Assembly: GCA_963798465.1 (NCBI GenBank)
Contig: CAWCTC010000001.1
Coordinates: 528,465-592,464, forward strand
Direction of reading: 5' to 3'
From: an uncultured bacterium
GTDB lineage: Bacteria; Patescibacteriota; Minisyncoccia; Phycocordibacterales; GWA1-40-21
Length of the DNA: 64,000 nucleotides
The translations under genes and the position numbers were made by a program. Shown here one piece after another: positions 26,722 through 64,000 of this stretch (its first letter is position 1; each line of letters begins with the position of its first letter). The notes beneath the pieces were generated by a model. It was not told where the DNA came from, did no database searches, and was given only the letters and a program-made list of their open reading frames with translations.

Positions 26722-26752
26722 TCAAAACGAAAAACTCCCTTTCGGGAGTTTT
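26722..26752 (-). terminator. Rho-independent terminator after rpsI
   Basis: In minus sense, directly after TAA: AAAACTCCC-GAAA-GGGAGTTTTTCGTTTT. Confidence 0.85.
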
Positions 26753-33655: not shown

Positions 33656-33695
33656 ATGAGCAGTATTATAATATGTAGCGCCTGTAAGTGCAATG

Positions 33696-33738
33696 ATAAA
33701 GAGCGGATTTTTTGCTTCGAAAAAAATCTGCTCTTTAT
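33696..33738 (-). terminator. Rho-independent terminator after alaS
   Basis: In minus sense: ATAAAGAGCAGATTTTT-TTCGAAGC-AAAAATCCGCTCTTTAT. Confidence 0.7.
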
Positions 33739-33748
33739 CAAAAATTAA

Positions 33749-44172: not shown

Positions 44173-47100
44173 TTATTTTGACATATTTCCTGTTGGAAGA
44201 TTTGTCGGAGCGCTTGGCGTTTTCGGACCACTCATCGGCGCTTTTGGAATATTTGGAGTCTTATTATTTTTTCTGTAGAAGAATATCAAACCTATCATAG
44301 CTATTAAGACAATTACTATCAAAGCTACCATCGGCTTGTTTGGAATATTTGAGAAACCTTCTGCAACGGCTGCGAACAATCCTGCATTATTAGTTGAAGT
44401 TGCAACTGATGATGTAGAATTTGTCGATGTCGCCAATGAAACTTGTTCATTGTTGCTTGTTGTAGCAGAAGAATTGAATTCTCCTACTCCTGCTGGAATC
44501 GTTATTCCTGTGTCTGGAGTTCCGGAAATTGCTTCAGATGTTCCTGTTGTATTTGCAATAGTTGTGGTTGATGCAACTGGTGCTGTTGAAACTATCGGAG
44601 TAACTGCATTTACGATAACTGTTCTTGTCGCAGATGAAGTGTTTCCGGCTTTATCAGATACTGAGTAAACTACTGAATATGTTCCTGGAACATTCATATT
44701 GATTGAACTTACAGCATTTATATTAGATGTAATATTTCCATCAACATTATCATTTGCTGTCGCTCCCGCATCTACATATGAATCGCCGACATTTATATTC
44801 GCTGGATTTGCTCCGAGAATTGTAATAACTGGCGCAACAATATCTTCTGAAGATGGTGTTGTATTTGTAAATGTAGGTGTTGGAATAACTCCTGATGCTG
44901 TTGAACCTCCGTTGACGGGATTAACTACTGGTGCTGCGACAACATTTACTGTTCTTATAGCTGTTGCAACATTTTCTGCTGCATCGCTTGAAGTGTAAGT
45001 TATTGTATACGTAGCAACTACGGTTGTATCAACCGTTCCTGAAGTTGTTACTGTTGTTGAGGTTGCATCAAACGCATCATAAGCTGTTGCGCCTGCATCT
45101 GTGTATAGATTTCCAACTGTAACATTTACTGGGTTTGAACCAAGAATCGTGATTACCGGTGGAACTGTATCTTCTGTAACAACATTATTTACTGTAACTG
45201 CATAATTTGCTGTGAATGATCCAACTGTTACCGTCAAAACTTCATTTGGATTTGCAACTGAAGAATCAAATCCTGAAATGTTTGAATCACTGATATCATT
45301 AATTGTTGAAGTTGAATTATCTGAATATGTTCCTGTAACTATCATTCCTGTGATATCAACCGCTGAATCACCAACTGTGTAAACTGTTTTGGTTGGCAGA
45401 GTTGTGATTGCGATTGATTTTAATGTTGGAGCTGGAATTGAACCTGAACTTACAGAAATCGTGTAGGTTGCTGTTTTTCCACTAACATTAATTGTAAGAG
45501 TTTCGCTTGAAGTTGCAGCCGAAGAATCAAATCCTGAAATGTTTGAATCACTGATATCATTAATTGTTGAAGTTGAATTATCTGAATATGTTCCTGTAAC
45601 TATCATTCCTGTGATATCAACCGCTGAATCACCAACTGTGTAAACTGTTTTGGTTGGCAGAGTTGTGATTGCGATGCTTGATAGTGTTGGAGCTGGAATT
45701 GGGTTTGAATTAACTGTAACTGTTACTGTAGCTGATATTGTTGTTGATCCAGCTGTTCCTGTAATAACAGTTGTTCCTGTTGCAGAAGCTGTAAACAAAC
45801 CGCTTGCATCTATATTACCAACTGAAGTATCTGAGCTAGACCAAGTTACTGAAGCATTTATTGGATTACCAAATTGATCAGAAGTTGAAGCTGTGAATTG
45901 TGTAGTTGAACCAACTGACAATGTTAATGGTGAAGCTGAAATAGTAATTGATGATACGACTGGAGTTGGATCTGAAAAATCTGAAACTGTAACCGTTACT
46001 GTAGCTGATATTGTTGTTGATCCAGCTGTTCCTGTAATAACAGTTGTTCCTGTTGCAGAAGCTGTAAACAAACCAGTTGAATCTATATTACCAACTGAAG
46101 TATCTGAACTAGACCAAGTTACTGCTGCAGAAATTGGATTATTATTTTGATCCAAAGTTATTGCTGTGAATTGTGTTGTTGAACCGACTGACAATGTTAA
46201 TGGTGAAGCTGAAATACTAATTGATGATACGACTGGAGTTGGAACACTTCCATTAATCACAACCGTATAAGTTGCTGTTTTTCCGCTGACTGTAATTGTC
46301 AAAACTTCATTTGGGTTTGCAACTGAAGAATTAAATCCAGAAATGTTTGAATCACTGATATCATTAATTGTTGAAGTTGAATTATCTGAATATGTTCCTG
46401 TAACTATCATTCCTGTGATATCAACCGCTGAATCACCAACTGTGTAAACTGTTTTGGTTGGCAGAGTTGTGATTGCGATTGATTTTAATGTTGGAGCTGG
46501 AATTGAACCTGAACTTACAGAAATCGTGTAGGTTGCTGTTTTTCCACTAACATTAATTGTAAGAGTTTCGCTTGAAGTTGCAGCCGAAGAATCAAATCCT
46601 GAAATGTTTGAATCACTGATATCATTAATTGTTGAAGTTGAATTATCTGAATATGTTCCTGTAACTACCAATCCTGTTATATCAAGTGAATCACCAACTG
46701 TGTAAACTGTTTTTGTTGCTGGTGAGGTGATTGCGATTGATTGCAATGTTGGTGCTGGAGGAATGGCTGCAAAATTTGCAGTGACTGTAATATCTCCGGC
46801 TACTGCTAGATCAGTTCTTGTTGCTGTAAGAACTCCGTCGCTCCAATTTGAGAATTGGAATCCAAAATTTGGAAATGCTGTTACTGATGTTCCATTTGCA
46901 CCAGAGGCAACAACTTGAGTTGAAGATCCTGTTATAGAACCGTTACCATCAGTTGTGTAAGTAAGTGTAAATGAAGCTGGAGTTCCAATTGAACTTATTT
47001 CTGTTGGAACTGTAATCGTTGTAGTTGTTCCATTTATTGTAATAGTACCGCTATCAATCATGCCGTTCAAAATTACTGCATTAGTTGTTGTTGCATTTAC

Positions 47101-50100
47101 AAGAACTGTTCCTGTAATTGTTGAACCTGAATCAACTACGTTTGTAAGTGTTGAACTTGCAACTGTTGAGCCCGTAAGATTTGAATTCGTTGAAGTTGAA
47201 TCTGATATGACAACATTATTTAATACTGAATTTACAAGATCACTGTTTGTTGAAGTTGAATTTGTAAGTTGTGAATTATCAAGTGTTGAGAGAGTTACAG
47301 AACTTGATGCAACATTTGAACCATTGCTAATAGTTGAAGTTGCGATAGTGCTCAATGTTATTGTTGAAGCATCTATCGTTGAACCAGAGACAGTTGAAGT
47401 CGCAACATAAGAATGATTTGAAACTGTTGTGTAGTAAATATTTGATGCATAAATTTGTGAGTTTGTACTTGTTGAATGAATAAACTTATACAAAGTTAAT
47501 GGATCAATTGTTGAATATGCAATATAACAATCTGTTGCAAAATAATTTTCTACATCAGAATTTAATATAGTACATCTTGCAATGTCATCATTTGATAAAG
47601 TTGAGTTTGTAGAAACAACTTGATCAAGGTTTGTATCATCAACGGTTGTGTTTGTAACTGTTGAATTATTTACATTCCAGAATGTTGAAAGTGTTGAGTT
47701 TGTGATTGTTGTTGTTCCTGTTGTTGTTGCAATTGGAGCAAGCAAAGATTCTGCAAGTGATGGTGAATACAAGCTGTAGAAGATTCCTCCCATAGTTGAA
47801 TTCGTTATCATAACTTGTGAATCAGAAACTATGAATGGTCCATAACTTGTAGTTGTTGAAATATTTCCAGCATTATCTATTGCTGCAACATGGAACCAAA
47901 GGGTGCCAAAACCAGAATCAGTAGTTGTTGTGGCAGTTGTTGTTGAAACTCCAACTGTTCCTGTAACTATTTGAGTTGCGTTTGAATTATCCCAAAGGTA
48001 TTCATATCCGGCCAATCCAGATTCTGAATCTATTGAATTCGTCCATGAAATATTTGCTGAAGCGATTATCGTACCTGTTGCACTTGCATTTGTAATGACA
48101 GGTGTTGTTGGTGCGGTCGTATCAGGAATTACTACATTTGAAACAATAACTGTTCTTGTCGCTGTTGCAACATTTCCTGCTGCATCGCTTGAAGTGTAAG
48201 TAATTGTATATGAACCGATAGTATTTACATTAACTGTTCCAGTTGCTGTAACTGCTGTCGATGTTCCATCGTATGCATCGAACGCTGTTGCGCCTGCATC
48301 AATGTAAAAATCACCGACAAATATATTAGTTGGATTTGCTCCAAGAATTGTTATTACTGGCGCAATCGTATCAGGAATAATTACATTTGAAACTGTAACA
48401 GTTGTTGAAGCTGAAAATGCTCCAGCTGTTCCAGTTATTGTAGTTGTTCCGGCAGAAAGTCCGATGAACAATCCGCTTGCATCTATCATACCGACAGATG
48501 AGTTTGAACTAATCCAAGTTGTTGTAGCTGGGAATGGATTTCCAAATTGATCTTTTGTTGTTGAAGTAAATGTTGTTGTTGCTCCAACTAATATATTTGG
48601 ATTTAATGGTGCAATGCTGATTGAAGCAAGTGCTGGTGGAATAACTGCATTGTTTACACTTATCGTATAAGTTGCAGTTGATGTTCCAACTGTGATTGTC
48701 AAAACTTCATTTGGGTTTGCAACTAAAGAATTGAATCCTGAAATGTTTGAAACATTTATTGGTTCTGTTGAAGTTGAACCGTCAGAATATGTTCCTGTGA
48801 CAACAAGTCCAGTGATATCAAGTGCGTCGCCGACTGTGTAAACTGTTTTGTTTGCTGGAGTCGTGATTGCAATTGATTGCAATGTTGGAGTTGAAGTTGC
48901 AGCAGATACTGTTACAAGAGTTGTAATCGGCATGAGTGAACCTGCTGATGCAGTTATCTCAGTTGTTCCAATTGAACTTGCTGTAAATATTCCGTTCGCA
49001 TCAATTGTTCCGACAGCATTATTTGTGTTTGACCAAGTTGTGGTCGTTGCAAATGGCTGACCAAATTGATCCAAAGTTGTTGAGACAAAAGTTATTTGTT
49101 CTCCAACTGTAACTGATGGATTTAGCGGTGAAATACTCATTGATGTAAGTACTGCTGGAACAGCGCTGACTACAACTTCTCTTGAAATTGTAGAAACATT
49201 TCCGGATAAATCTGAAGAAATGTAATTTACCGTATATATACCGACATTATTGGTATTAACAGTTCCAAATATGGTAACTGGTCTTACTCCGTCAACCAAG
49301 TCGGTTGAAGAAGCTCCCTGTTCTACATATGTATTTCCTACGGATAGATCAAGGACAGCTGGTCCTATCAAGGACATTGCTGGTCCTGTTGTGTCCTTTA
49401 TAACAACCAGAGACGTAGCGGTTGCAACATTTCCTGAAAGATCTGTTGCTGTCCAAATAACTGTTGAAGTTCCAAGTCCGAATCCTGCTGGATTATAGGT
49501 AATAATTGGGCTTGTACTTGAGTTATCTGTTGCTGTAGCCTGTACTAATACTGGCGTTGTTGTTGTTCCTGTTGCTTCAAATACTTGAGTAGCTGGAACT
49601 GAAATGACAGGAGCTATTGTATCTACAACATTTACTATTCTTGTAGCTGTTGCAACATTTCCTGCTAGATCTACTGAAGTATAATCTACTGCATATGTTC
49701 CCAAAACTGAAGTATTTACTGAACTTGATGCTGTAAATGTAAGTGGAACTCCTGAATTATCAGTAACACTGACACCTGCATCTGTATAAAGCGTATTTAT
49801 TTGAACATTGGCGGGATTTGATCCAAGTATTGTTATAACTGGAGCAATCTTATCAATATTTGAAATTGTAATTGTCCTTGATGAGAAGTTTCCTGCTACA
49901 TCCGTTGCTGTGAACGTAACTGTTCCGTTGTTTGAGAAATCAGCTGTTGATGTTGCACCTGAATTTATTATTGAAGCTATTGTAGAAGTTCCTACAATAT
50001 TTCCTTCATTTGTAGTTGCAGTAACTATGACATCTTGATTTGTTGATGAAGTTGCATATGGAAGCACTGTAATTATTGGTGCGACTTTATCAATGTTTGA

Positions 50101-51270
50101 AATTGTAATTGTCCTTGATGAGAAGTTTCCTGCTGCATCTGTAGCTGTGAACGTAACTGTTCCGTTGTTTGAGAAATCAGCTGTTGATGTTGCACCATTG
50201 TTTGCAATTGAAGCAATAGTAGAAACACCTACAATATTTCCTTCATTTGTAGTTGCAGTAACTATGACATCTTGATTTGTTGATGAAGTTGCATATGGAA
50301 GTACTGTAATTATTGGCGCAACTTTATCAATATTTGAAATTGTAATTGTTTTTGAAGAAACATTTCCTGCTGCATCTGTAGCTGTAAATGTGACTGTGCC
50401 ATTATCTGAAAATGTAGCTGATGATGTTGCTCCTGAAGTTACTATGCTAGCTGATGATGAAGATGCAATTATTGTTCCTTCATTTGTAACTGCTGTAACT
50501 GTAACATTTTGATTTGTTGATGAAGTTGCATATGGAAGAATTGTAATGACTGGGGCTGTAAGATCTGCTCCGAAAGAAACAATTATAATACCATTTCCTC
50601 CGATTGCTCCGGCATCACCCAAATTTCCATTTGAGTTCAACCATCCGCTTCCTGCTCCACCACCGGCACCTCTTACTCCAGCTGTTGGAGCTGTGTACGA
50701 AGTAGCACTTCCTGTGCTTCCCTGACCTGAGATTCCAATGGCAGTTGTTCCACCATTTCCTCCGTAGGTTCTTGATCCGAGATTGCTTGCACCATTGGTT
50801 CCGTTTGTTCCACCGATACCACCGGCAAAACCACCGACACCGTTTCCAATGCCAGCTGTTGCACCTTGTCCGCCGAATCCTCCGTTAGCAACAACAGAAG
50901 ATCCGAAAGATGTTGATCCTCCGTTTCCTCCGTTTCCTGCTGCAACAGTTAAAGATCCAGCTGTACCTGCAGTACCTGCTGTTCCAATTGTGTAAGGAAT
51001 TATTTGTCCTGGAGTAACAGGAATAGTTGCTATCTTAACAGCTCCTGCTCCTCCTCCGCCACCACCGTATGTGTAGGCTCCGCCCGCTCCGCCTCCTCCG
51101 GCACCGATTGTTTCTACCGTAACGCTAGTTACACCAGCTGGTACGGTAAAATTTCCGCTTTTCAAAAGAGTTGTCGTAGCTGAATAATCAGCAAACGCAA
51201 CTGATCCGAAAGACAGAACGCCAAGGAAGACGACGATGAGGGCGCTTATTGTTCTAGTAATATTTTTCAT
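44173..51270 (-). CDS. Giant (2365 aa) cell-surface protein: signal peptide, glycine-rich N-terminal domain, many Ig-like repeats, C-terminal TM anchor
   Basis: Signal peptide MKNITRTISALIVVFLGVLSFGSVAFA. Residues ~50-230 are rich in GGxGG runs. Repeated modules include APVITILG.NP..V..G..Y.DAGA (HYR/DUF5011-like), ..SSDTSVGNID.TGLFTA.ATGTT.ITGT (Big_2-like) and LQSIAIT..KTVYTVGD.LDITG..VTGTYSD. The C-terminus has a TM helix, ALIVIVLIAMIGLIFFY, and a short basic tail. Confidence 0.9.
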   Translation of the reverse strand: MKNITRTISALIVVFLGVLSFGSVAFADYSATTTLLKSGNFTVPAGVTSVTVETIGAGGGGAGGAYTYGGGGGGAGAVKIATIPVTPGQIIPYTIGTAGTAGTAGSLTVAAGNGGNGGSTSFGSSVVANGGFGGQGATAGIGNGVGGFAGGIGGTNGTNGASNLGSRTYGGNGGTTAIGISGQGSTGSATSYTAPTAGVRGAGGGAGSGWLNSNGNLGDAGAIGGNGIIIVSFGADLTAPVITILPYATSSTNQNVTVTAVTNEGTIIASSSSASIVTSGATSSATFSDNGTVTFTATDAAGNVSSKTITISNIDKVAPIITVLPYATSSTNQDVIVTATTNEGNIVGVSTIASIANNGATSTADFSNNGTVTFTATDAAGNFSSRTITISNIDKVAPIITVLPYATSSTNQDVIVTATTNEGNIVGTSTIASIINSGATSTADFSNNGTVTFTATDVAGNFSSRTITISNIDKIAPVITILGSNPANVQINTLYTDAGVSVTDNSGVPLTFTASSSVNTSVLGTYAVDYTSVDLAGNVATATRIVNVVDTIAPVISVPATQVFEATGTTTTPVLVQATATDNSSTSPIITYNPAGFGLGTSTVIWTATDLSGNVATATSLVVIKDTTGPAMSLIGPAVLDLSVGNTYVEQGASSTDLVDGVRPVTIFGTVNTNNVGIYTVNYISSDLSGNVSTISREVVVSAVPAVLTSMSISPLNPSVTVGEQITFVSTTLDQFGQPFATTTTWSNTNNAVGTIDANGIFTASSIGTTEITASAGSLMPITTLVTVSAATSTPTLQSIAITTPANKTVYTVGDALDITGLVVTGTYSDGSTSTEPINVSNISGFNSLVANPNEVLTITVGTSTATYTISVNNAVIPPALASISIAPLNPNILVGATTTFTSTTKDQFGNPFPATTTWISSNSSVGMIDASGLFIGLSAGTTTITGTAGAFSASTTVTVSNVIIPDTIAPVITILGANPTNIFVGDFYIDAGATAFDAYDGTSTAVTATGTVNVNTIGSYTITYTSSDAAGNVATATRTVIVSNVVIPDTTAPTTPVITNASATGTIIASANISWTNSIDSESGLAGYEYLWDNSNATQIVTGTVGVSTTTATTTTDSGFGTLWFHVAAIDNAGNISTTTSYGPFIVSDSQVMITNSTMGGIFYSLYSPSLAESLLAPIATTTGTTTITNSTLSTFWNVNNSTVTNTTVDDTNLDQVVSTNSTLSNDDIARCTILNSDVENYFATDCYIAYSTIDPLTLYKFIHSTSTNSQIYASNIYYTTVSNHSYVATSTVSGSTIDASTITLSTIATSTISNGSNVASSSVTLSTLDNSQLTNSTSTNSDLVNSVLNNVVISDSTSTNSNLTGSTVASSTLTNVVDSGSTITGTVLVNATTTNAVILNGMIDSGTITINGTTTTITVPTEISSIGTPASFTLTYTTDGNGSITGSSTQVVASGANGTSVTAFPNFGFQFSNWSDGVLTATRTDLAVAGDITVTANFAAIPPAPTLQSIAITSPATKTVYTVGDSLDITGLVVTGTYSDNSTSTINDISDSNISGFDSSAATSSETLTINVSGKTATYTISVSSGSIPAPTLKSIAITTLPTKTVYTVGDSAVDITGMIVTGTYSDNSTSTINDISDSNISGFNSSVANPNEVLTITVSGKTATYTVVINGSVPTPVVSSISISASPLTLSVGSTTQFTAITLDQNNNPISAAVTWSSSDTSVGNIDSTGLFTASATGTTVITGTAGSTTISATVTVTVSDFSDPTPVVSSITISASPLTLSVGSTTQFTASTSDQFGNPINASVTWSSSDTSVGNIDASGLFTASATGTTVITGTAGSTTISATVTVTVNSNPIPAPTLSSIAITTLPTKTVYTVGDSAVDITGMIVTGTYSDNSTSTINDISDSNISGFDSSAATSSETLTINVSGKTATYTISVSSGSIPAPTLKSIAITTLPTKTVYTVGDSAVDITGMIVTGTYSDNSTSTINDISDSNISGFDSSVANPNEVLTVTVGSFTANYAVTVNNVVTEDTVPPVITILGSNPVNVTVGNLYTDAGATAYDAFDATSTTVTTSGTVDTTVVATYTITYTSSDAAENVATAIRTVNVVAAPVVNPVNGGSTASGVIPTPTFTNTTPSSEDIVAPVITILGANPANINVGDSYVDAGATANDNVDGNITSNINAVSSINMNVPGTYSVVYSVSDKAGNTSSATRTVIVNAVTPIVSTAPVASTTTIANTTGTSEAISGTPDTGITIPAGVGEFNSSATTSNNEQVSLATSTNSTSSVATSTNNAGLFAAVAEGFSNIPNKPMVALIVIVLIAMIGLIFFYRKNNKTPNIPKAPMSGPKTPSAPTNLPTGNMSK
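45266..46710 (-). repeat. Near-identical intragenic DNA repeats (four ~260-bp units plus a ~250-bp pair) within the giant gene
   Basis: The string ..AATCCTGAAATGTTTGAATCACTGATATCATTAATTGTTGAAGTTGAATTATCTGAATATGTTCCTGTAAC.. recurs starting near 45266, 45527, 46333 and 46590. The blocks 45700-45890 and 45960-46140 are also near-identical. Confidence 0.85.
49850..50560 (-). repeat. Three tandem 237-bp (79-codon) repeats within the giant gene
   Basis: Unit starts TTATCAAT(A/G)TTTGAAATTGTAATTGT lie at 49850, 50087 and 50324. They encode DKVAPIITVLPYATSSTNQDVIVTATTNEGNIVG..TFTATDAAGN.SS.TITISNI. Confidence 0.9.
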
Positions 51271-55666: not shown

Positions 55667-57244
55667 TTAAATATTTGGTGAAGCAACTATTTGATCGCCC
55701 TCTTTTAATCCGGAGATTATTTGAATATAGCCATCTATTCCGCGCATTCCTGTTTCAACTTGCGTTTGAGTGCTTTTTAGCGGGTTGCTTGGATCTATCA
55801 ATTTTACATATTTATTTATATCTATTGAATAAACTGATCTCGAAGGCACCGCCAAAACACCGTTCGCCTGACCGGTAAGAATATCCAAGTTTGCAGTCAT
55901 GCCGGATTTTATTCTGTTGTCAGATGAAGAGGCAAAATTTAAAGTAACTTTATACGTCGGCACATCTTCTATAATTGTTTCTCCTGGATCAATCTTCACA
56001 ACAGAAGTTGGGAAAAAAGTATCCGAACCATATGCGTCCAATGTCGTTGTTGCAACATCGCCGATTTTAACTTTTGAGATGTCGGCTTCTGGCACATAAG
56101 ACTCGACATCATATTGTCCGTAAGAAATAACTGATATAGCCGGAATACCAGATTGCATCGTTTCGCCAACCTTTGCATTTACATTAGTAATAACTCCGCT
56201 TATTGGAGAAATAATTATTGATTTATCAAAATTCGCCTGTGCTGCGTCAACATTTGCCTGTGCTTGTGCAACCGCTGCTTGTGAAGCTTGAAGTTGATCC
56301 GATGTCGCTCCAGTTTTTATGAGAGTAAGTTGACTATTTGCAACATCAAGTGAAGAAATTGCTGATTGATATTGACTAGATGCCGCGGAAAGATTGCTAA
56401 TTGCAAGATCAACTTCAGCTCTGGCCGTCGAAACAGCAGTTTTCCAAATCGTCAATGTGCTCTGACTTATTGTCACTGGTGTTAAATTATTTATCGCCAA
56501 TGCAAGATTCTTCAAAAAAGTTTGAATGTAAGTCAAATTATCATTTGCTGTTTCAACGGCAGAATTAAGATCGGAATCAGTAGTTAAACTTTCGGAAGAA
56601 GTGCTCCAGGAATTAAGCATAGTTTCAATATCGGTTCTTTCCGCGACAATGTCATTGTTTAATTGGGGATCGGCTTGAAACTGCAAAGTAGGATTTTGAG
56701 TTCTTGGATTTGTAAACATAACATCTGTATAATTCCTGACTGCATCATCGGATTTATTATAGGAATCCTGTATTGAATTTACCAAACTATTCTCAGCATC
56801 AGAAATATCGCTTTCCGCTTTTTCCACTTGTGATTGATTTACAGCGATTTGTTGCGGAGTTGATCCATTTTGAAGAGATGATAAATTGGCCTCGGCTATT
56901 TGAAGACCTGCTTTTGCCTGCTCAACTGCAGCTGACAAATCCGCATTTGAAAGCGATGACAATTCCTCGCCTGCCGATACTTTGTCTCCAACTGCAACGT
57001 AAACATGAGCGACTTCTCCGCTCGATTCAAAAGAAAGATCTAAGTTTGAAAGGGGCACAACATTTCCCGTCTCACTGACTTCTTCTACAATGTCGTGTTT
57101 TTGAACCGTGACAAAATCGGTCGGAGAGTTTTGCTTTCTGCCAAGAATAACAAACAAAACTATTATAATAACAATAGCTATTAATATAGACCAGATTTTA
57201 TGTTTCTGGACAAAATTTTTCAACTTGGAAAATATATTTTTCAT
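55667..57244 (-). CDS. HlyD/MacA-type periplasmic adaptor (membrane fusion) protein
   Basis: 525 aa with an N-terminal TM helix, a biotinyl-lipoyl-like hairpin (VSAGEELSSL), a long alanine/glutamine-rich coiled coil, and beta-barrel C-terminal domains. It is the first gene of the adaptor-ATPase-permease operon. Confidence 0.85.
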   Translation of the reverse strand: MKNIFSKLKNFVQKHKIWSILIAIVIIIVLFVILGRKQNSPTDFVTVQKHDIVEEVSETGNVVPLSNLDLSFESSGEVAHVYVAVGDKVSAGEELSSLSNADLSAAVEQAKAGLQIAEANLSSLQNGSTPQQIAVNQSQVEKAESDISDAENSLVNSIQDSYNKSDDAVRNYTDVMFTNPRTQNPTLQFQADPQLNNDIVAERTDIETMLNSWSTSSESLTTDSDLNSAVETANDNLTYIQTFLKNLALAINNLTPVTISQSTLTIWKTAVSTARAEVDLAISNLSAASSQYQSAISSLDVANSQLTLIKTGATSDQLQASQAAVAQAQANVDAAQANFDKSIIISPISGVITNVNAKVGETMQSGIPAISVISYGQYDVESYVPEADISKVKIGDVATTTLDAYGSDTFFPTSVVKIDPGETIIEDVPTYKVTLNFASSSDNRIKSGMTANLDILTGQANGVLAVPSRSVYSIDINKYVKLIDPSNPLKSTQTQVETGMRGIDGYIQIISGLKEGDQIVASPNI

Positions 57245-57295
57245 AACTGACAGATATTATATCAGACTTTAATTATTTTAAAATGATAATTTAAC

Positions 57296-57453
57296 TTGTC
57301 GGAGCGCCGGGATTTGAAACTTACAGTTTCAGTACCCTGATTGGCTCGCTTGTTCGTGATTACACTCCAAGCTCGGCTCAATCAGGCTTCAAATCCCTTT
57401 TGAAGCAATCCCATTGCTTCAAACACTCACAACAAAATTACTTCGTAATTTTG
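57296..57453 (-). repeat. tRNA-3'-end-associated structured element (family D) downstream of tRNA-Pro, ending in a 23-nt copy of the tRNA-Pro 3' end
   Basis: TTGTCGGAGCGCCGGGATTTGAA occurs at 57296-57318 and at 57451-57473. Internal hairpins are CAAAATTAC-GAA-GTAATTTTG, TTTGAAGCAAT-GGG-ATTGCTTCAAA and CCTGATTG..CAATCAGG. The last 71 nt form a tRNA-length 'ghost' starting TGGAGTGTA (the real tRNA starts CGGAGCGTA). Confidence 0.7.
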
Positions 57454-57525
57454 TCGGAGCGCCGGGATTTGAACCCGGAGTCACATGAACCCGAATCATG
57501 CATGTTACCGTTACACTACGCTCCG
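57454..57525 (-). tRNA. tRNA-Pro (anticodon CGG)
   Basis: Hand-folded cloverleaf: CGGAGCG/CGCTCCG acceptor, GTGT/ACAT D stem, CATGA-TTCGGGT-TCATG anticodon arm, CCGGG-TTCAAAT-CCCGG T arm. CCA is not encoded. Confidence 0.9.
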
Positions 57526-57675
57526 ATATTTTTCTTGTGGTCACAAATAAAATTACTGACGTAATTTTTTCGCGACCTCGGCTCACCATTTTTGCCTTTG
57601 CTTCGCTAAACAAAAATATGGCTGCGCCTTCCACAAGATCATAAAATCTAAAGCAGTTTAGATTTTATGATCTTG
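57526..57675 (-). repeat. Family D element downstream of tRNA-Ala(CGC)
   Basis: A 50-nt hairpin (57630-57679) starts inside the tRNA 3' end (TCCACAAGATCATAAAATCTAAA-loop-TTTAGATTTTATGATCTTGTGGA). Conserved stems follow, then GGTCGCG..GTCA-loop hairpin..TGTGACC, and it ends in CCACAAG, a 7-nt copy of the tRNA 3' end. Confidence 0.7.
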
Positions 57676-57746
57676 TGGACCTAGGCAGAATCGGACTGCC
57701 GTCTCGTCAATGCGAATGACGCGTTCTACCACTGTACTATAGGCCC
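57676..57746 (-). tRNA. tRNA-Ala (anticodon CGC)
   Basis: GGGCCTA/TAGGTCC acceptor with G3:U70, anticodon arm CGTCA-TTCGCAT-TGACG, T arm GGCAG-TCCGATT-CTGCC; 71 nt. Confidence 0.88.
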
Positions 57747-57898
57747 AATTTTATTGTGGTCCCGAATAAATTTCCTGACGGAAATTTTTCTTGACCATGA
57801 CTTGCGGTTTTTGCCTTTCGCTTTGCTCAAACAAAAACATCGCTCCGTCTTCCACATAGTAGATAAAATCTGCAGTAGTGCAGATTTTATCTACTATG
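57747..57898 (-). repeat. Family D element downstream of tRNA-Ala(GGC)
   Basis: A 52-nt perfect hairpin (57851-57902) includes the tRNA 3' end. It is collinear with the 57526-57675 element, and the substitutions are compensatory in two stems (GCG..CGC vs CCA..TGG; TTTCC-GTCA-GGAAA vs ATTAC-GTCA-GTAAT). Confidence 0.7.
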
Positions 57899-57971
57899 TG
57901 GACCACACCGGGATCGAACCGGTCGCCTCTTCCATGCCATGGAAACGCTCTACCAAATGAGCTAGCGGCCC
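57899..57971 (-). tRNA. tRNA-Ala (anticodon GGC)
   Basis: GGGCCGC/GTGGTCC acceptor with G3:U70, anticodon arm TTTCC-ATGGCAT-GGAAG, T arm ACCGG-TTCGATC-CCGGT; 73 nt. Confidence 0.9.
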
Positions 57972-58097
57972 TTTGCGCCAAGTGAGTATATTATAAAAAA
58001 TCATAAAAATCAAAAATAGAATAATAAAAAAAATTATGTTATAAAGTAATCGTGCACGGGCGATTAGCTCAGTTGGTTAGAGCATACGATTCATTCA

Positions 58098-58214
58098 CCC
58101 GAGAAAATTTTTGGACATTTAGCTCAGTTGGTTAGAGCATGCGATTCACATTCGCAAGGTCACAGGTTCGAATCCTGTAATGTCCACACATCATCGTCCA
58201 AAAACTTTAACGGG
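58098..58214 (+). repeat. MITE-like element, family C, copy 4: the same inverted termini, but the interior is tRNA-Val
   Basis: CCCGAGAAAATTTTTGGAC ... GTCCAAAAACTTTAACGGG. The termini can pair over 19 positions with 3 mismatches. Confidence 0.75.
58113..58186 (+). tRNA. tRNA-Val (anticodon CAC), nested inside the interrupted tRNA
   Basis: GGACATT/AATGTCC acceptor, GCTC/GAGC D stem, TGCGA-TTCACAT-TCGCA anticodon arm, ACAGG-TTCGAAT-CCTGT T arm; 74 nt. Confidence 0.9.
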
Positions 58215-58254
58215 CAAGTTCGTAAGGTCACAAGTTCGATTCTTGTATCGCCCA

Positions 58255-58486
58255 CAGACAAAAAACAAGATGAATATGAATACTTGCAATATTCAGCTGT
58301 TTTTGGCTGGGTGATACAAGAATCGAAAGATCGGAAGTAATTTTTTCAGCAGAAAAAATTACTGAGTCGTGGTCGCGAAAAATTTCGAGCAACCTAATTT
58401 TCTTGAGCGAAGCGATTAGAAAATGGGAGTACTCTTGTGGTAGACGGCGAGAAAATTATTTGTGACCGATTCTTGTATCGCCCACA
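58255..58486 (+). repeat. Family D element downstream of the interrupted tRNA, with inverted and direct copies of its 3' end
   Basis: The direct repeat CGATTCTTGTATCGCCCACA occurs at 58237-58256 and 58467-58486. An inverted copy, TGGGTGATACAAGAATCGAA, lies at 58308-58327. GGTCGCG (58368) and TGTGACC (58461) are shared with the 57526 element. The last 75 nt form a tRNA-length 'ghost' starting AAGCGATTAG (the real tRNA starts GGGCGATTAG). Confidence 0.7.
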
Positions 58487-58570
58487 AAAATATAAAAAGT
58501 CCAGTGATTCAAATATGGGCATTAAAAAGGCTTGGAAAAATATATTCTTTATGCTAATCTTTTATCCACT

Positions 58571-58643
58571 GGGCCTGTAGCTCATCTGGTAGAGCACCTC
58601 ATTTGCAATGAGGGGGTAAGCGGTTCGAGTCCGCTCAGGTCCA
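58571..58643 (+). tRNA. tRNA-Ala (anticodon UGC)
   Basis: GGGCCTG/CAGGTCC acceptor with G3:U70, anticodon arm CCTCA-TTTGCAA-TGAGG, T arm AGCGG-TTCGAGT-CCGCT; 73 nt. Confidence 0.92.
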
Positions 58644-58664
58644 CACAATGATACATCCACATTT

Positions 58665-59630
58665 TTATTGCTCCAAGGCAAGAGTGATCACGTGATCTAA
58701 AAAGTTTGACAGAGAACATCCGGCTGCTTCTAAAGATTTTGGAAGCAGTGATTCTTTCGTAAGCCCCGGCAAAGTATTGACTTCAAGAATATAAACTCCC
58801 CTTTTCGGACTGACAATAAAATCCGATCTTGAATAATGACGAAGACCGAGAATTCTGTGCACCTCGACTGCCATATCTTGAATTGTCTTTTTTTCTTTTT
58901 CGGAAAAATTGCCTGGACATACTTCGCTCGACTTGCCAGAATATTTTGCATCATAACCGAAAAATTCGAAATCTTTCGGCTTGATTATTTCAACTGGAAA
59001 AAGAGGGTAAATCATTTGACCTCTGAAATTTTCAACAACTCCGCAAGTCGCTTCTTTCCCTTTTATGAATTCTTCCACGATTATCACATCAGAATATTTC
59101 AGGGCTTTTTCAATCGCTGGCATTATATCTTTCAGATTTTTAACCAAAGAAACGCCGATGGATGAACCGCTTCCTCCTGGCTTTACGATTGCAGGCATCG
59201 GAAATGTTTTGAAAATAGTTTTATCGATATCTTTGAGATTTTCTCCTTTTTTAATAACTTTATAAACCGGAGTTTTCAAGTCATCTTTTGCAAAAATATT
59301 TTTTGCCATGACTTTATTCATGCCGAGCGCCGACGCCAAAGCTTTTGATCCGGTATATTTCACGCCGAATTGATCCATAAGCTGTTGCACTTTTCCGTCT
59401 TCGCCATACTCGCCGTGCATTGCATTAAAAACGACATCAATATTTTTGAATAATTTTTCAGGAGATATTTTGACGCCATCCAAAAACCAAGATTTGTTTT
59501 TGTCCACAAAAACATCAAGCGGAATATATTTTTCCGGCAGATTTTCCAAGACATTTTTTCCCGACTTCATGGAGACTTCGCTTTCCGCTCCAGGACCGCC
59601 TCTTAAGACTGCAACTTTTATTCTTTGCAT
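58665..59630 (-). CDS. ddl: D-alanine--D-alanine ligase
   Basis: 321 aa, ATP-grasp fold (MQRIKVAVLRGGPGAESEVS.., ..EVNTLPGLT..). Confidence 0.93.
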   Translation of the reverse strand: MQRIKVAVLRGGPGAESEVSMKSGKNVLENLPEKYIPLDVFVDKNKSWFLDGVKISPEKLFKNIDVVFNAMHGEYGEDGKVQQLMDQFGVKYTGSKALASALGMNKVMAKNIFAKDDLKTPVYKVIKKGENLKDIDKTIFKTFPMPAIVKPGGSGSSIGVSLVKNLKDIMPAIEKALKYSDVIIVEEFIKGKEATCGVVENFRGQMIYPLFPVEIIKPKDFEFFGYDAKYSGKSSEVCPGNFSEKEKKTIQDMAVEVHRILGLRHYSRSDFIVSPKRGVYILEVNTLPGLTKESLLPKSLEAAGCSLSNFLDHVITLALEQ

Positions 59631-59661
59631 ACTAAGGAGAATTATATCACTTCAATAGAAA

Positions 59662-60882
59662 TTACAAAACAAAATTTTTGTTTCTTCTTTCTCTGTGATA
59701 CTTGATAGCAAACCTGTGAGCTTCGCTATTCGCCAACAAGATTTCGCTTTCATATTTATGAATCAAATCTTCTCTGCCAGTAATCATTTTTGGCCTGTGT
59801 CTTTCGTCTTTTGTAACAGCTACAACAATAATATCTGGAACGCCGTATTGTTTAAGTGTTTTTTCAGCTATATTTTTTTGAGCAGTCGAACCGTCTACTA
59901 CTATTATGTCAGGAAATTTCCATTCTTCATGATTCAATCTTCTTCGGAGCATTTCGCCGAGTCCAGCAACGTCATTTTGCACGCTTTCATTTATTTTAAA
60001 TTTTCTGTATTCAGCTTTGTTCACCATTCCATTTTCAACAACAGTCATTACGCCGACAGTGTTTGTTCCGCTAATATGTGCAACATCATAAGCTTCAATC
60101 CTGAAAGCCTTTCCGGTTTTTTCCTCGATATTTTCTTCTTTAATAAGTGCGACATCTTGAATATGATTTAAAGCAAAAATAGTTTTCTTTATTTTGTCTG
60201 CCTTTTCAAATTCTTGATAATCAGCGTACGTTTCCATTTCTTTCTCGAGTTTTTCCATCAAATCAGTTTTTTTGCCTTCAAAAAATAATATTATATTTCT
60301 GATTACTTTTGCATAATCTTTTTTTGCTTCAACACCCGTAGTTTCCGGCGCCAAGCCGATTTCTTTGTAAAATTTATAGCCAGTTTTTTCATTTGAATAA
60401 TTATCTAGAAATGGAAAAATCTTGCGAACGATTTTCAAAGCTTCTTTAAGCTGACTTCCATTTGTAAAAGGTCCAAATTTTTCTTTGATTGAATATTTTT
60501 CTTTGCCAATTTGATCAAGAACTCTTCCACGTTCTATCAAAACTTTTGGAAAATCTTCTTTCGTAATAATCACATAGTTGTAGCTTCTATCATCTTTTTC
60601 TTTCGTATTATATTTAGGCTGATGTTTTTTAATCAAATTTGATTCAAGTATCAAAGCCTCAAGAACTGAATCTGTTTTTATAAAATCAATATTGTCTGCC
60701 TGAAAAACCATATCAACAATAAGCGGACCGCGAGTCGCAATTAAATCATTTGAAAAATAACTTCTGACTCTATCTTTGAGCGAAGTCGCTTTTCCGATAT
60801 ATAAAATATCCTTATTTTTTTTAAATAAGTAAACGCCAGGTTCGGTTGGAAGATTATTTTTTTTGAGTTGTTGACTATCCAT
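59662..60882 (-). CDS. uvrC: Excinuclease subunit UvrC, short form (ATG 60882; the ORF track begins at 60918)
   Basis: GIY-YIG N-terminus (EPGVYLFKKNKDILYIGKATSLKDRVRSYF), a UVR domain (YQEFEKADKIKKTIFALNHI), and an RNase H-like endonuclease domain. No C-terminal (HhH)2 is visible. Confidence 0.88.
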   Translation of the reverse strand: MDSQQLKKNNLPTEPGVYLFKKNKDILYIGKATSLKDRVRSYFSNDLIATRGPLIVDMVFQADNIDFIKTDSVLEALILESNLIKKHQPKYNTKEKDDRSYNYVIITKEDFPKVLIERGRVLDQIGKEKYSIKEKFGPFTNGSQLKEALKIVRKIFPFLDNYSNEKTGYKFYKEIGLAPETTGVEAKKDYAKVIRNIILFFEGKKTDLMEKLEKEMETYADYQEFEKADKIKKTIFALNHIQDVALIKEENIEEKTGKAFRIEAYDVAHISGTNTVGVMTVVENGMVNKAEYRKFKINESVQNDVAGLGEMLRRRLNHEEWKFPDIIVVDGSTAQKNIAEKTLKQYGVPDIIVVAVTKDERHRPKMITGREDLIHKYESEILLANSEAHRFAIKYHRERRNKNFVL

Positions 60883-60947
60883 ATTCAGTGTTATACCATG
60901 ACAAACGGACGAACTCAAATAAAAAAAATAATAAGGAGGTGTTAAAA

Positions 60948-61250
60948 ATGAATAAATGTAAATGTGGCGGAGAAATAAACAAAGAAGTATCCTTTTCGGG
61001 ACAAATTTTTAACGATGCAGAAACATTCTCAAAACGCAAAGAAGCTTATGAGTGTGCAAAGTGTGGCAAATTGCACTGGGATGATGGAAGACCGATTATT
61101 ATAAATGATCCGGTCTTTAAGGACCATGTAAAAGCATATTTATTTTCAATAGGCTGCGTGGACAAAACAAATCCGTGCGGTAATAATATTCTTGTCGTTT
61201 CAGTTAAAAAATTTCTTGGATTATTTCCTTATTACAAGAGAATAATCTAG
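60948..61250 (+). CDS. Small zinc-ribbon protein (100 aa from ATG 60948)
   Basis: RBS AAGGAGGTGTTAAAA-ATG, with CKCGG..(35 aa)..CAKCGK. Confidence 0.5.
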   Translation: MNKCKCGGEINKEVSFSGQIFNDAETFSKRKEAYECAKCGKLHWDDGRPIIINDPVFKDHVKAYLFSIGCVDKTNPCGNNILVVSVKKFLGLFPYYKRII

Positions 61251-61284
61251 ATTTTTTACAAACTAAATCAAGGAGATGTTTTCT

Positions 61285-61443
61285 ATGAGTAGATCATGGA
61301 TATGCCCGAATAAAAAGTGTCAGGGAAAAATAAAAAGAAGGAAAATGATATGGTCATATTCTACAAGAAACATTTACAGATGCAATAAATGCAAAAAAAC
61401 GTATACATATGATCCAAAAAATAAAAAATGGATTATGTATTAA
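61285..61443 (+). CDS. Small zinc-ribbon protein (52 aa, below the ORF-track cutoff)
   Basis: RBS AAGGAGATGTTTTCT-ATG. Own translation gives MSRSWICPNKKCQGKIKRRKMIWSYSTRNIYRCNKCKKTYTYDPKNKKWIMY*, with CxxxxC..CxxC. Confidence 0.45.
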   Translation: MSRSWICPNKKCQGKIKRRKMIWSYSTRNIYRCNKCKKTYTYDPKNKKWIMY

Positions 61444-61450
61444 TAATTTC

Positions 61451-61477
61451 AAAAACCCGAGCCATACTCGGGTTTTT
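61451..61477. terminator. Bidirectional rho-independent terminator
   Basis: AAAAACCCGAG-CCATA-CTCGGGTTTTT, overlapping the uvrA stop codon. Confidence 0.85.
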
Positions 61478-64000
61478 ATTTGCTCTTTTTCAAAACCCTC
61501 TTCAAATATTTTCCAGTGTAACTTTTTTCATTCATCGCGACATCTTCCGGAGTTCCTTTTGCAATTATTTCCCCGCCTTTGTCTCCGCCTTCAGGACCGA
61601 TATCGATAATATAATCTGAACTTTTTATCAAATCCATATTATGCTCAATGACAACGACAGTATTTCCTGCATCAACAAGCTTCTGCAAAATTTCTATAAG
61701 TTTTTTCACATCTTCATAGTGAAGTCCGATTGTCGGCTCATCCAAGAAATAAATTGTTTTGTGAAGTCCTGGCCTGTAAAGTTCCGAAGCGATTTTTACT
61801 CTTTGAGCTTCTCCGCCAGAAAGTGTTGTTGCAGATTGCCCAAGCTTCAGATAATCAAGTCCGACTTCGTTAAGACATTTTATCCTGTCGTAAACTGCCG
61901 GCAAATCCACAAAGAAATTCATAGCTTCCTCGACTGTCATATCCAGTATTTCATGAATATTTTTTCCTTTATATTTCACTTCCAAAGTTTCTTTCGTAAA
62001 TCTTTTTCCGTGGCAGACATCGCAAGGCACATAAACAGTCGGCAAGAAATGCATCTCGCACTTCAATCGTTCCGTTTCCTTCGCAGTTTTCGCATCTTCC
62101 GCCTTTTACATTGAAAGAAAATCTGTTTGCTCCCCAGCCTCTTTCTTTTGCCATCGTCGTCATTGAAAACATATCGCGTATGAATGTCCAAGCTCCGGTA
62201 TAAGTCGCCGGATTTGAGCGCGGAGTTCTTCCTATCGGCGACTGGTCAATCATGATTGTCCTCGCCAACATATTCCGAACCGGAAAAACTTTCGCAATTA
62301 TAGTGTTTGCATTCGGCGGAATTTTCTTTCAAGTCTTGCCTGCAGATTTTTATACAAAATTTCATAAACAAAAGAAGATTTTCCGGAACCGGAAACTCCG
62401 GTGATCGTCACAAATTTGCCAAGCGGAACTTCCACATTCATATTTTTAATATTGAAAATTTTTCCGCCTCGTATTTTCAGTTTTCCTTTATCTTGATCTC
62501 GTCTCTTTTTCGGCAAATCAATTTTCTTGTCTCCGCGCAAATAATCCAGAGTCAGAGAACCGGATTCATTTTTCTTTGCAGTCAAAAGCTCGTCCAGATA
62601 TCCTGAGACAACAACATTTCCTCCATGAACTCCGGCGCCCGGACCGATATCTACAATATAGTCCGAAGCGAACATCGTATCTTCATCGTGTTCAACAACA
62701 AGAATAGTATTTCCCAAATCTCGCAGATTCATAAAGTGTTTTTATGAGCTTGTCATTGTCTCTTTGATGCAGACCAATTGTCGGCTCATCAAGCACATAA
62801 AGTGCGCCGACAAGTCCAGATCCGAGCTGTGAAGCCAGACGAATTCTTTGCGCTTCTCCGCCAGAAAGAGTATTTGCTCTTCTATCAAGCGAAAGATATT
62901 CGATACCGACATTTGTCATGAATTGCAAGCCGGGAATCAATTTCTTTCAAAATTACTCTTGAAATTTCCTGTTCGCTTTCAGTAAATTTCATTTCTTCAA
63001 AAAATTTTTTGGAATCGGTGATAGATTTTGCGGTATATTCAACAATATTTATTCCTCCGATAAGCACATGAAGCGCTTCGTCGCGAGTCTTGCGCCGTGG
63101 CAGGTTTCGCATGGTTCATCCGTCAAAAAATCTTTCGTTCCGAGTCCATGGCAAGCTCGCAAGCTCCGTAAGGCGAATTGAAAGAAAAAAGCCGCGGCTC
63201 GATTTCAGGATAAGAATATCCGTCGTAAGGGCACATGAATTTCACGGAAATCATTTTTGTTTCCTCCGGAGTTTCAACTTTCAAAAGTCCTTTTGATTCC
63301 TCAATGGCTTTTTCAACCGCATCAGAAAGTGAACGTACACTATATAGCTTTCGTGTTTATCATTCCTTTGCTTGTCATTCCCGTGCAGACGCAATCCAGG
63401 TTCTTTTATCCGGTGCTTCGGTGGACGACTCTTTCGTCTTTTGAATTCGCTTATATAAAATTCATCGACAAGCACATCAATATCATGCTTTTTATTTTTT
63501 GAGAGAATTATTTGGTTCCTGAGTTTTTTCAGCTCTCCGTCGACTTTCACCTCCTCATATCCTTTTTCAAGTAAATCATAAAGAAGCTGATAATATTCTC
63601 CTTTTCTTCCGACAACAACCGGAGAAAATATTTTTATCTTGTCCGCATTCACTTCCACGCCCAGAATTTCTTTCGGATTTTTCGCCGGTTTCAAATGCGT
63701 GACAGTATGAATAATCGTTTCCAAAATTTCTTCTTTTGAAAGTTTTTTGATTTCTCTTCCGCAGACAAGACAATGCGGTTTGCCAATTCTTGCATAAAGA
63801 ATTCTCAAATAATCATAAATTTCCGTGATGGTCGCCACGGTTGAACGCGGATTGTTTGAACGGGATTTTTGGTCAATCGCGATAGCTGGAGAAAGTCCGA
63901 CAATCTCATCCACATCCGGCTTCTGCATTTGGTGAAAAAATTGTCTTGCATATGAAGAAAGCGATTCCACATATCTTCTCTGACCTTCGGCAAAAATCGT
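61476..64000 (-). pseudogene. uvrA: Excinuclease subunit UvrA, at least 6 frame changes plus a repeat-module insertion; the N-terminus lies beyond the right edge
   Basis: UvrA blocks are spread over ORFs 63281..63970, 62885..63112, 62692..62940, 62298..62732, 61969..62271 and 61476..62066, plus pieces I translated ([57 protein letters not shown]; [24 protein letters not shown]). The ABC signatures [12 protein letters not shown] and [12 protein letters not shown] are present. Confidence 0.85.
63374..63399 (+). repeat. Degenerate B-type hairpin module inside the uvrA reading frame
   Basis: GTCATTCCCGTGCAGACGCAATCCAG; compare GTCATTCCCGCGGATGCGGGAATCCAG at 22894. Confidence 0.7.

Follow-up and report, generated by a model that had tools for sequence, protein, structure and literature searches.

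What are the structured, non-coding units that lie directly behind four tRNA genes of a Paceibacteria genome, each ending in a copy of the neighbouring tRNA 3' end? The question was raised by a preliminary description of a stretch of 64,000 nt from contig CAWCTC010000001.1 (assembly GCA_963798465.1; this whole stretch is called the window here), which took the units either for a family of non-autonomous elements that target tRNA genes or for co-transcribed processing or regulatory RNAs. The nearest relatives of the window by its Ddl protein are metagenome-assembled genomes (MAGs) labelled Patescibacteria, Paceibacterota or Parcubacteria-group, and the window belongs to a Paceibacteria (Patescibacteria) genome. 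The units are named A (after tRNA-Pro), B (after tRNA-Ala(CGC)), C (after tRNA-Ala(GGC)) and D (after an interrupted tRNA); their coordinates are collected in Table 1. On the evidence given below they appear to be tRNA-linked repeat or trailer elements of a kind absent from Rfam 15.

A three-hairpin element family behind tRNA genes

A first profile was built from B, C and one copy from the relative L008 (loci compared with the window carry L numbers) and searched against 80 related genomes anchored on Ddl, using nhmmer and a covariance model of the three-hairpin plan (H1, P2/H2 and H3), referred to as model R1. Full-length copies with E < 1e-17 were found in 14 of the 80 genomes by nhmmer and R1, the latter giving 17 copies at this level, and the window itself holds four copies of this main family, namely B, C, D and a fifth unit of the window, located behind rpsI. 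One degenerate pattern scan of metagenome contigs returned at least 120 loci, and R1 gave at least 138 matches in 100 of the metagenome loci listed. The further copies on which the preliminary description had made its proposal depend are therefore numerous.

Among the matches listed, a tRNA recognised by ARAGORN lies at most 140 nt upstream on the same strand for 80 of the 111 copies that are not at a contig edge, and in many of the other 31 a tRNA 3' end is visible by eye or the copy stands within a tandem array. About 30 anticodons are represented among these matches, belonging to tRNAs for Ile, Lys, Ala, Arg, Val, Glu, Ser, Asp, Met, Gly, Leu, Trp, Pro, Cys, Asn and Phe, and clusters are seen in which tRNA and element alternate. 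B, C and D each lie directly 3' of a tRNA on the same strand, and H1 of each pairs with the last bases of that tRNA. Copies nearly always follow tRNA genes on the same strand; the rpsI copy, which has no tRNA near it, is an exception to the rule. In this copy H1 pairs with the last rpsI codons (26757-26766 with 26721-26729), and a canonical terminator follows, by our own reading, at about 26580-26610. A weak R1 match at 33692-33849 (20.5 bits) was dropped, being by our reading merely the terminator after alaS.

Sixteen copies align to a common plan. The tRNA ends in ..GUCCA and is followed by CA and then by H1, the outer stem of which is CACA..UGUGG; in many relatives H1 resembles a terminator by eye, as an A tract, a GC stem (often with a CUGC loop) and a U tract can be seen. 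P2 is a 3-bp helix, GNC/GN'C, the middle pair of which covaries, and leads through an NNA/GA internal loop to H2 (GCG-AU-GUUUUG...CAAAAC-CGC); H3 (GGUCGYG...YGUGACC) follows, and the element ends in ACA. In the 16 sequences, aligned with MAFFT, RNAalifold finds compensatory changes in 25 of the 41 predicted pairs. When 107 distinct sequences are taken together, the share of paired cells is 94.7%, against 69.5% in shuffles and 37-57% with slid partners, and double changes occur in 36 of the 41 pairs; this larger alignment was fitted to the model and so favours pairing, and the independent MAFFT alignment gives the same helices. At the start of H1 the 3' arm pairs with tRNA positions 70-73, and these pairs covary with the tRNA (UA:51, CG:40; GC:38, CG:27, UA:15), and loops, a bulge and one G.U pair are conserved in the module. 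Covariation, for the absence of which the preliminary description had allowed, is thus very strong.

The two Ala-linked units bear out what had been reported of them: they are collinear, they have the same three-domain fold (z values in Table 1), and the compensatory changes named between them are real on an alignment check. Their modules are about 77-86% alike. The perfect hairpin of each takes in the TCCA of the tRNA, with 100% complementary arms of 23 nt in B (57630-57652/57657-57679) and of 24 nt in C (57851-57874/57879-57902), and in both units the gap from H3 to the next tRNA is 10-13 nt. The closing helix GGTCGCG..TGTGACC is indeed common to 57539-57577 and 58371-58467, that is, to H3 of B and of D. 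A and D also fold far better than shuffled sequences.

The strand on which the fold acts can be read from its wobble pairs. Of the 107 sequences, 104 have G.U as the fifth pair of H3, and over all pairs G.U and U.G together number 236 against 54 for A.C and C.A. This excess of G.U over A.C indicates that the fold is selected on the tRNA-sense strand; as judged from sequence, recognition as a symmetric duplex is excluded, and a sense-strand RNA and a sense-strand single-stranded DNA would fit the data alike.

These results bear directly on the possibility that the units are inert scars, either remnants of integrase islands or decayed tandem tRNA duplicates without conserved structure. Such scars would account for the 23 nt of A and 20 nt of D that exactly repeat the tRNA 3' end, tRNA 3' ends serve as integration sites in this lineage (L007, see below), and partial tRNA copies abound (ATCGTCCA at 58193-58200; 5' partials in L010, L047 and L029). 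However, covariation and a common architecture over more than 100 copies are incompatible with decay, which refutes this explanation for B, C and D, and the units contain no tRNA-model match and no remnant of an open reading frame (ORF). Inert scars are therefore a very improbable account of the elements, possible only for the terminal direct copies themselves. The suggestion of decayed tandem tRNA duplicates fell with the conserved structure, and the interpretation as the classical integration scar of a lost integrase element is judged wrong.

A further proposal, that the last 71-75 nt of two units are tRNA-length "ghosts", was rejected as well. No tRNA model matches these segments (ARAGORN and Rfam, E up to 10), the 5' matches of 8-9 nt are at chance level by our estimate (about one expected), and the segment in D looks by eye like an insertion in H3 (TTAGAAAAT..AGTACTCTTGYGGTAGA) which is also present in the unrelated copy L127.

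Nor do all four units form one family, as had been supposed. A reaches 9.5 bits with model R1 (E = 1.2) and is not homologous to B, C and D; by its sequence it falls into a second and smaller family, which shares with the main one the plan of inverted arm, module and direct copy. The module of this second family differs from that of the main family; one of its hairpins covaries, has CUGUAAG as an invariant loop and lies at 57315-57331 in A. A further has an arm at 57388-57397 (GGGATTTGAA) that is complementary to the T loop and T stem of the tRNA, and a short hairpin at 57430-57456. Mini-hairpins of the form GCGAAGC/GCGNAGC are met repeatedly, both at the H2 and H3 tips and within the A-type family (57596-57612 and 58404-58418 in the window; many loci elsewhere); motifs of the GCGAAGC type are unusually stable in DNA.

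Searches against Rfam 15, at the gathering threshold and with E up to 10, returned tRNAs and noise-level hairpins of the microRNA type only. The units hold no ORF. A pattern scan of viral contigs gave 0 matches, BLAST against phages and plasmids gave no match, and a full-text literature search gave no description of these elements; a paper on Patescibacteria tRNAs treats group I introns at position 35/36 and makes no mention of trailers (PMC13011429). Several resemblances were considered by eye and dropped: helix 8 of the signal recognition particle RNA (the order of the motifs is reversed), the T-box sequence, domain V of group II introns (no closing CGGYUC), the kink-turn (the bulged strand has 3 nt and 5 are needed), a retroviral primer-binding site (the arm complements the trailer of the gene and not the added CCA) and the IS110 bridge RNA (dropped for the small size of the loops and the lack of an ORF).

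A small module with conserved unpaired bases and an invariant G.U beside a fixed boundary, placed at RNA ends, could also suggest a self-cleaving ribozyme of a new type, which would trim its transcript at the end of the tRNA or within ..GUGACC, before its last C. We regard this as most improbable, as no known self-cleaving ribozyme or other Rfam 15 family matches the units with covariance models at E up to 10, no cleavage site is discernible in the sequence, and cleavage would leave the direct copies unexplained.

Element ends, patchiness and exchange

Two forms of the main family are distinguished by their ends. In the short form, to which B and C belong and which makes up about three quarters of the copies, H1 reaches just 4-9 nt into the tRNA and its trailer; behind ..GUGAC, the tail is a repeat of N72, N73 and 2-6 bases of the trailer. 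In the long form, represented by D and by about one quarter of the copies, the module is preceded by the acceptor 3' strand and T arm in inverted copy, often with a small inserted hairpin, and a direct copy of 17-23 nt, beginning at C56 of the T loop, follows ..GUGAC; the lengths used for this form are those of the direct copies, since those of the inverted arms are confounded by the inserted hairpin and by offsets of the ARAGORN ends and were set aside.

The direct copies reported for the window are real. That of tRNA-Pro in A is exact over 23 nt (57296-57318 = 57451-57473) and that in D extends over 20 nt (58237-58256 = 58467-58486). Those of the two Ala genes, for which 5-7 nt had been given, now measure 8 nt in B (CCACAAGA, 57533-57540 repeating 57671-57678) and 5 nt in C (CCACA, 57755-57759 repeating 57897-57901). 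The inverted 20-nt copy in D, 58308-58327, pairs with 58235-58254 at 95%, as had been described, and its sole mismatch is, by our own reading, a G.U on the tRNA-sense strand; H3 of D carries an apical insertion of about 60 nt.

Over the family, the end of the element tracks the end of the tRNA, the identity within the same copy being 4.21 of 7 positions against 3.55 +/- 0.07 in shuffled pairings. N72, N73 and +1 change together, and where N72 is G the last pair of H3 is given up and the match to the tRNA is kept. The direct copies are found in varied states of decay (L014, L081, L149) and the inverted arms stay intact, so that the copy looks like a scar and the arm like a maintained pairing.

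This difference is relevant to the idea that the element acts in trans or mimics a tRNA, the arm, once the tRNA is removed, pairing with the terminal direct copy in an acceptor/T-stem-like helix that would close the module, and the resulting small tRNA-like RNA possibly binding or titrating a tRNA-handling protein. In the predicted fold of D without its tRNA, 58308-58324 does pair with 58467-58484 in a 17-bp helix that closes P2/H2 and H3, and tRNA end, H1 arm and tail agree three ways in the family. The conserved loops, bulge and G.U, and the anticodon-arm-like hairpin of the A type with its invariant loop, would also be in line with such a role. But the direct copies decay in the three loci named above while the arm is intact, so that maintenance of the closing helix is inconsistent. 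In the short form a paired tail would be in competition with the final two base pairs of H3, and 75% of the species are without the element at the orthologous tRNA. A trans-acting or tRNA-mimicking RNA is accordingly considered quite unlikely.

The occurrence of the elements is patchy. In the Ddl-anchored sample a copy is present at 23 of 108 tRNAs, and at 18 of the 71 orthologous tRNA-Ala(UGC) genes from 71 species. The tRNA-Ala(UGC) of the window is itself without an element, and its trailer, CACAAT.., matches the sequence after the element in L008; the empty site therefore corresponds to a clean junction at the CCACA repeat. L007 and L008, with ddl genes that are 76% identical, have the same H1 sequence over 50 nt, and the module is 98% identical between L002 and L007 though their H1 hairpins differ (ddl 83% identical). 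In one metagenome, a module of 125 nt is 100% identical behind a tRNA-Ser (L149) and a tRNA-Pro (L130), the identity ending at GGGATTCGAA on the left and at GACCGAATC on the right, where the tRNA-specific arms begin. These sequence comparisons indicate that the element is dispensable and that copies are exchanged faster than the host genes diverge.

Tandem arrays are present in L094, L127, L149-L151, L155, L159 and L188, and in L010 a 700-bp insert with a small ORF parts a tRNA from an older unit (3'-end relic, H1 and element), which represents a nested insertion. The orientation of the unit of tRNA-Ala(UGC) and element beside ddl varies among relatives, being directed either away from ddl or towards it (L002 11082-11293 versus L007 2146-2355), and a small segment has therefore been inverted repeatedly. 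In L007, a 526-aa large serine recombinase (8765-10345, minus strand; Resolvase and zinc-ribbon recombinase domains) adjoins the 3' end of tRNA-Ala(GGC), so that ORF-bearing mobile elements also use tRNA 3' ends in this lineage.

Much of this would be expected of purely selfish, non-autonomous mobile DNA, the hairpins of which are read as folded single-stranded DNA by an enzyme encoded elsewhere, with transcription being incidental. The direct repeats flank the elements and track the local tRNA, the elements are patchy, identical modules occur at different tRNAs, and cassette-like tandem arrays, a nested insertion and inversion of the tRNA-plus-element unit between relatives are all seen. The unrelated A-type module has the same layout of inverted and direct copy, the module persists behind a terminator-like H1, the mini-hairpins recur at the hairpin tips, and the recombinase of L007 shows that such sites are used by mobile DNA. 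An enzyme that would move the elements is, however, without a candidate: the statement of the preliminary description that the window contains no integrase stands, no Pfam domain of a recombinase, transposase or reverse transcriptase being present in its ORFs of at least 130 aa. The viral, phage and plasmid collections gave no matches; terminal inverted repeats, a duplication of fixed length and the integron core GTTRRRY are absent; and the copies within the genome are diverged, as the comparison of B with C shows, so that there was no recent burst here. An arm matching each new tRNA would moreover be impossible unless the insertion process creates it. Selfish mobile DNA is thus the chief alternative, if on balance a somewhat doubtful one.

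Probable transcription, proposed spread and comparison with known systems

B and C are the sole spacers of the Ala-Ala-Pro operon, and a single promoter-like site lies ahead of this minus-strand cluster, upstream of tRNA-Ala(GGC), with none between the elements and the next tRNAs. For this reason B and C are probably transcribed, as internal spacers of one Ala-Ala-Pro transcript, and processing of the tRNAs on either side by RNase P and RNase Z would set them free. H1 of B and C is AU-rich by eye and was not flagged by a terminator scan; the GC-rich stem and U tract of an intrinsic terminator are found in neither.

We tentatively favour, without holding it to be probable outright, a reading in which the element is a cassette, non-autonomous and spread through recombination at the 3' ends of tRNA genes, and at the same time a co-transcribed RNA that punctuates the tRNA 3' end. 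Its ground is the family itself, with its structure and strand, its linkage to tRNAs, its repeats, patchiness and exchange; the operon layout suggests transcription with the tRNA, and the recombination mechanism and the processing role are speculative, the latter being the weakest step. Recombination would add the cassette to tRNA 3' ends, remove it, duplicate it and exchange it among them, and the direct copies would be the scars of the junctions. It would be transcribed with the tRNA and, as RNA, would give the transcript a closed and insulated 3' end. Where a transcription unit ends, H1 may serve as its terminator; within an operon it may instead be a double-stranded hairpin for processing. 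H3 with its tail (GACC-A-CA, compared with GUCC-A-CA in the tRNA) may form an acceptor-stem-like minihelix that could be cut by the enzymes acting on tRNA ends. The cassette is probably tolerated or kept as it closes off the tRNA transcript.

Each of the two original proposals is retained in part. A tRNA-targeting non-autonomous element family agrees with the direct copies, the patchiness, the nesting, the arrays and the shared modules, once the lost integrase is removed from it; a co-transcribed RNA agrees with the G.U bias and with the operon position of B and C, and its processing or regulatory role stays in the realm of speculation.

Several points weigh against the combined reading. At solitary tRNAs H1 resembles a strong intrinsic terminator, with a GC stem and a U tract, and the module downstream would therefore be poorly transcribed, which is hard to square with selection as RNA. 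No enzyme that would move a cassette was found among recombinase-type Pfam domains in the same window ORFs of at least 130 aa, the direct repeats range from 4 to more than 50 nt and fit no single known recombination chemistry, and recombination alone would leave unexplained the origin of an arm complementary, in each copy, to its own tRNA. A processing role is proposed from resemblance only; neither RNase Z nor RNase P requires an element of this kind, and it is missing at three quarters of the orthologous tRNAs. Finally, the conserved sequence of the helices (GUUUUG/CAAAAC, GGUCG/UGACC) hints at a specific partner.

The closest analogue in plan would seem to be the 178-bp repeat of E. coli tyrT with its RtT RNA, which is non-coding, is co-transcribed with the tRNA, ends in a copy of the tRNA 3' end and may occur in tandem repeats. 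The units of the window likewise end in a copy of the 3' end of the adjacent tRNA (23, 20, 8 and 5 nt), and tandem units occur in L159 and L150. In contrast, the RtT model RF00391 is without a match over 57200-58750 at E up to 10, and the present family stands behind about 30 tRNA types throughout a whole bacterial class and has a tRNA-complementary arm and a covarying three-hairpin fold.

With islands that target tRNA genes, and with remnants of such islands of the cis-mobilizable element (CIME) type, the elements share a distal direct repeat reaching from the T loop to the 3' end, an intact tRNA, patchy presence and nesting, and the repeats of A (57296-57318 = 57451-57473) and D (58467-58486 = 58237-58256) are placed like attL and attR. 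Unlike these islands, they are 140-230 nt long, carry neither ORF nor integrase and have repeats down to 4-5 nt; their interior is a conserved single-strand fold, and one family serves many tRNAs.

Integron attC sites, the folded attP of the CTX phage, the ends of IS200/IS605 and REP/RAYT resemble the present family in that structure is kept while sequence varies, in strand specificity, in cassette-like arrays and in the lack of an ORF inside the unit, and they offer possible models for the selfish-DNA alternative. The elements differ from attC and REP in having neither the integron core GTTRRRY nor the REP head GTAG, in forming three hairpins rather than one, and in that no partner enzyme was found; these systems are not known to have a specificity for tRNA ends. 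By inspection the attC core sites (RYYYAAC, GTTRRRY) are absent, the borders reading UGUGGAAG.. and ..GUGACCACA. Miniature inverted-repeat transposable elements are no better match by inspection, as the termini CACAAG.. and ..GTGACC are not inverted repeats and the direct repeats run from 4 to at least 23 nt.

On the RNA side, plant mitochondrial t-elements and the mascRNA of MALAT1 are tRNA-like processing signals. The acceptor-like helix and the discriminator-like base of the element would be comparable and may allow a cut by RNase P or RNase Z, although H3 forms no cloverleaf and is not matched by a tRNA model. The 3'ETS-leuZ of E. coli is a functional tRNA trailer, a single short sponge specific to its locus. 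By analogy, an RNA freed from a tRNA-operon spacer could have a role of its own here too, but the present family is multi-copy, structured and provided with tRNA-matched arms.

The tRNA cluster of the window and the meaning of the elements

All tRNA genes of the window found by ARAGORN and Rfam lie in a single cluster (Table 1). The window is low in G+C (about 36%) and carries housekeeping genes, among them ddl, uvrC, murG, ftsW, mraY, several aminoacyl-tRNA synthetase genes, dnaK/dnaJ/grpE, rpoA and rpsI. None of its tRNA genes encodes CCA, the discriminator base being directly followed by CA (e.g. GUCCA-CA), and the same is true of most relatives. A 2365-aa ORF (44173-51270, minus strand) with many bacterial immunoglobulin-like domains and a glycine-rich domain specifies a giant surface protein unrelated to the elements.

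Table 1. Elements, their parts and the tRNA genes of the window, with the basis of each assignment
Feature	Position	Strand	Basis
Fifth main-family copy of the window's units, 3' untranslated region of rpsI	26629-26766	-	model R1 69.5 bits, E = 1.3e-15; ribosomal protein S9 domain
Element A, second family	57296-57456	-	fold z = -6.5; relatives L144, L171, L159, L093
tRNA-Pro(CGG)	57453-57525	-	ARAGORN and Rfam
Element B, main family	57533-57680	-	model R1 119.4 bits, E = 4.2e-28; fold z = -12.6
Parts of B	H1 57630-57679; P2/H2 57580-57628; H3 57539-57577	-	fold
tRNA-Ala(CGC)	57675-57746	-	ARAGORN and Rfam
Element C, main family	57755-57903	-	model R1 124.2 bits, E = 2.7e-29; fold z = -11.5
Parts of C	H1 57851-57902; P2/H2 57799-57849; H3 57758-57796	-	fold
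tRNA-Ala(GGC), first gene of the Ala-Ala-Pro cluster	57898-57971	-	ARAGORN and Rfam tRNA, 51.4 bits
Sigma-70-like promoter match, TTGATT N17 TATACT	57985-58013	-	consensus match only
Val-like tRNA, anticodon reads CAU, split at anticodon loop	58058-58255	+	inverted repeat; comparison with L008 tRNA-Val
tRNA-Val(CAC)	58113-58187	+	ARAGORN and Rfam
Element D, main family, long-arm form	58256-58486	+	model R1 35.5 bits, E = 3.9e-07; folds
Parts of D	inverted copy of tRNA 3' third 58308-58327; P2/H2 58329-58368; H3 58371-58467	+	fold, repeats
tRNA-Ala(UGC)	58571-58644	+	ARAGORN and Rfam

The tRNA ahead of D had been described as an interrupted tRNA(CAU). It is interrupted, and its identity has to be revised, as it is a tRNA-Val-like paralogue with an intact tRNA-Val in its anticodon loop. 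Between the 5' part (58058-58096) and the 3' part (58222-58255) lies an insert of 125 nt which holds the tRNA-Val(CAC) and is bounded by a 19-nt inverted repeat (58098-58116 and 58196-58214). An 8-nt relic within the insert, ATCGTCCA at 58193-58200, is identical to the 3' end of the L008 tRNA-Val. The outer cloverleaf still folds. The nesting is not present in L007 and L008.

Other units and partial tRNA copies were observed at tRNA genes of relatives. A partial 5' copy, comprising acceptor strand and D arm, lies about 70 nt upstream of the true tRNA-Ala(UGC) in four divergent genomes (L010 12020-12210, minus strand; L047 11020-11160; L029 11810-11930; L059 6555-6690). Behind it come the same module, which a short UGAGU/ACUCA helix closes, and then an anticodon-arm-like hairpin. 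In L008, a different unit of 125 nt follows tRNA-Ala(GGC) at 13414-13545; it contains a hairpin resembling a terminator as well as a conserved CCACGGUAGGUGG hairpin that recurs in L002, L007 and L018, and ends in a 15-nt direct copy of the tRNA end. In L128, L132, L184 and L189 the module is part of a longer repeated unit with a conserved spacer of about 110 nt (..GAUGGAAGGCAC followed by AAAAC..CACAAYCC..) and direct repeats of up to 55 nt, and the RNA upstream is not matched by Rfam. The locus L188 contains, in addition to the element, a LOOT RNA at 2910-3020 (Rfam RF03000, 71.7 bits).

The closest relative, L001, has 98% Ddl identity and 95% nucleotide identity over 58661-63329. Its synteny with the window ends precisely at the stop codon of ddl (window 58661; L001 from 10964 on), where an ABC-transporter-like region takes the place of the tRNA cluster; either the region was rearranged or the assembly is broken at the tRNA/element cluster.

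For annotation, model R1 offers a handle on units that are at present unannotated and that may sit at assembly or synteny breakpoints, as the break in L001 suggests. The partial tRNA copies that accompany the elements could confuse the calling of tRNA genes.

Paceibacteria have tiny genomes with little spare DNA, and yet many of their tRNA genes carry a structured passenger of 140-230 nt, the fold of which has covariation support among the strongest that an uncatalogued element could show. It is tempting to go one step further and to see in the family a new class of non-autonomous cassette of the candidate phyla radiation (CPR), able to base-pair with the 3' end of any tRNA or highly expressed gene. 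Each copy would then have a guide-like arm and, at its far end, a copy of the target, and would be moved as a folded single strand of RNA or DNA by a putative host enzyme. We regard this as unlikely; if true, it would amount to a programmable insertion system without a protein gene of its own. If the elements are mobile DNA, they would represent the targeting of tRNA ends through target-matched sequence without an integrase gene. If they act as RNA, they would constitute a new and abundant RNA class tied to the formation of tRNA 3' ends in a major uncultured lineage.

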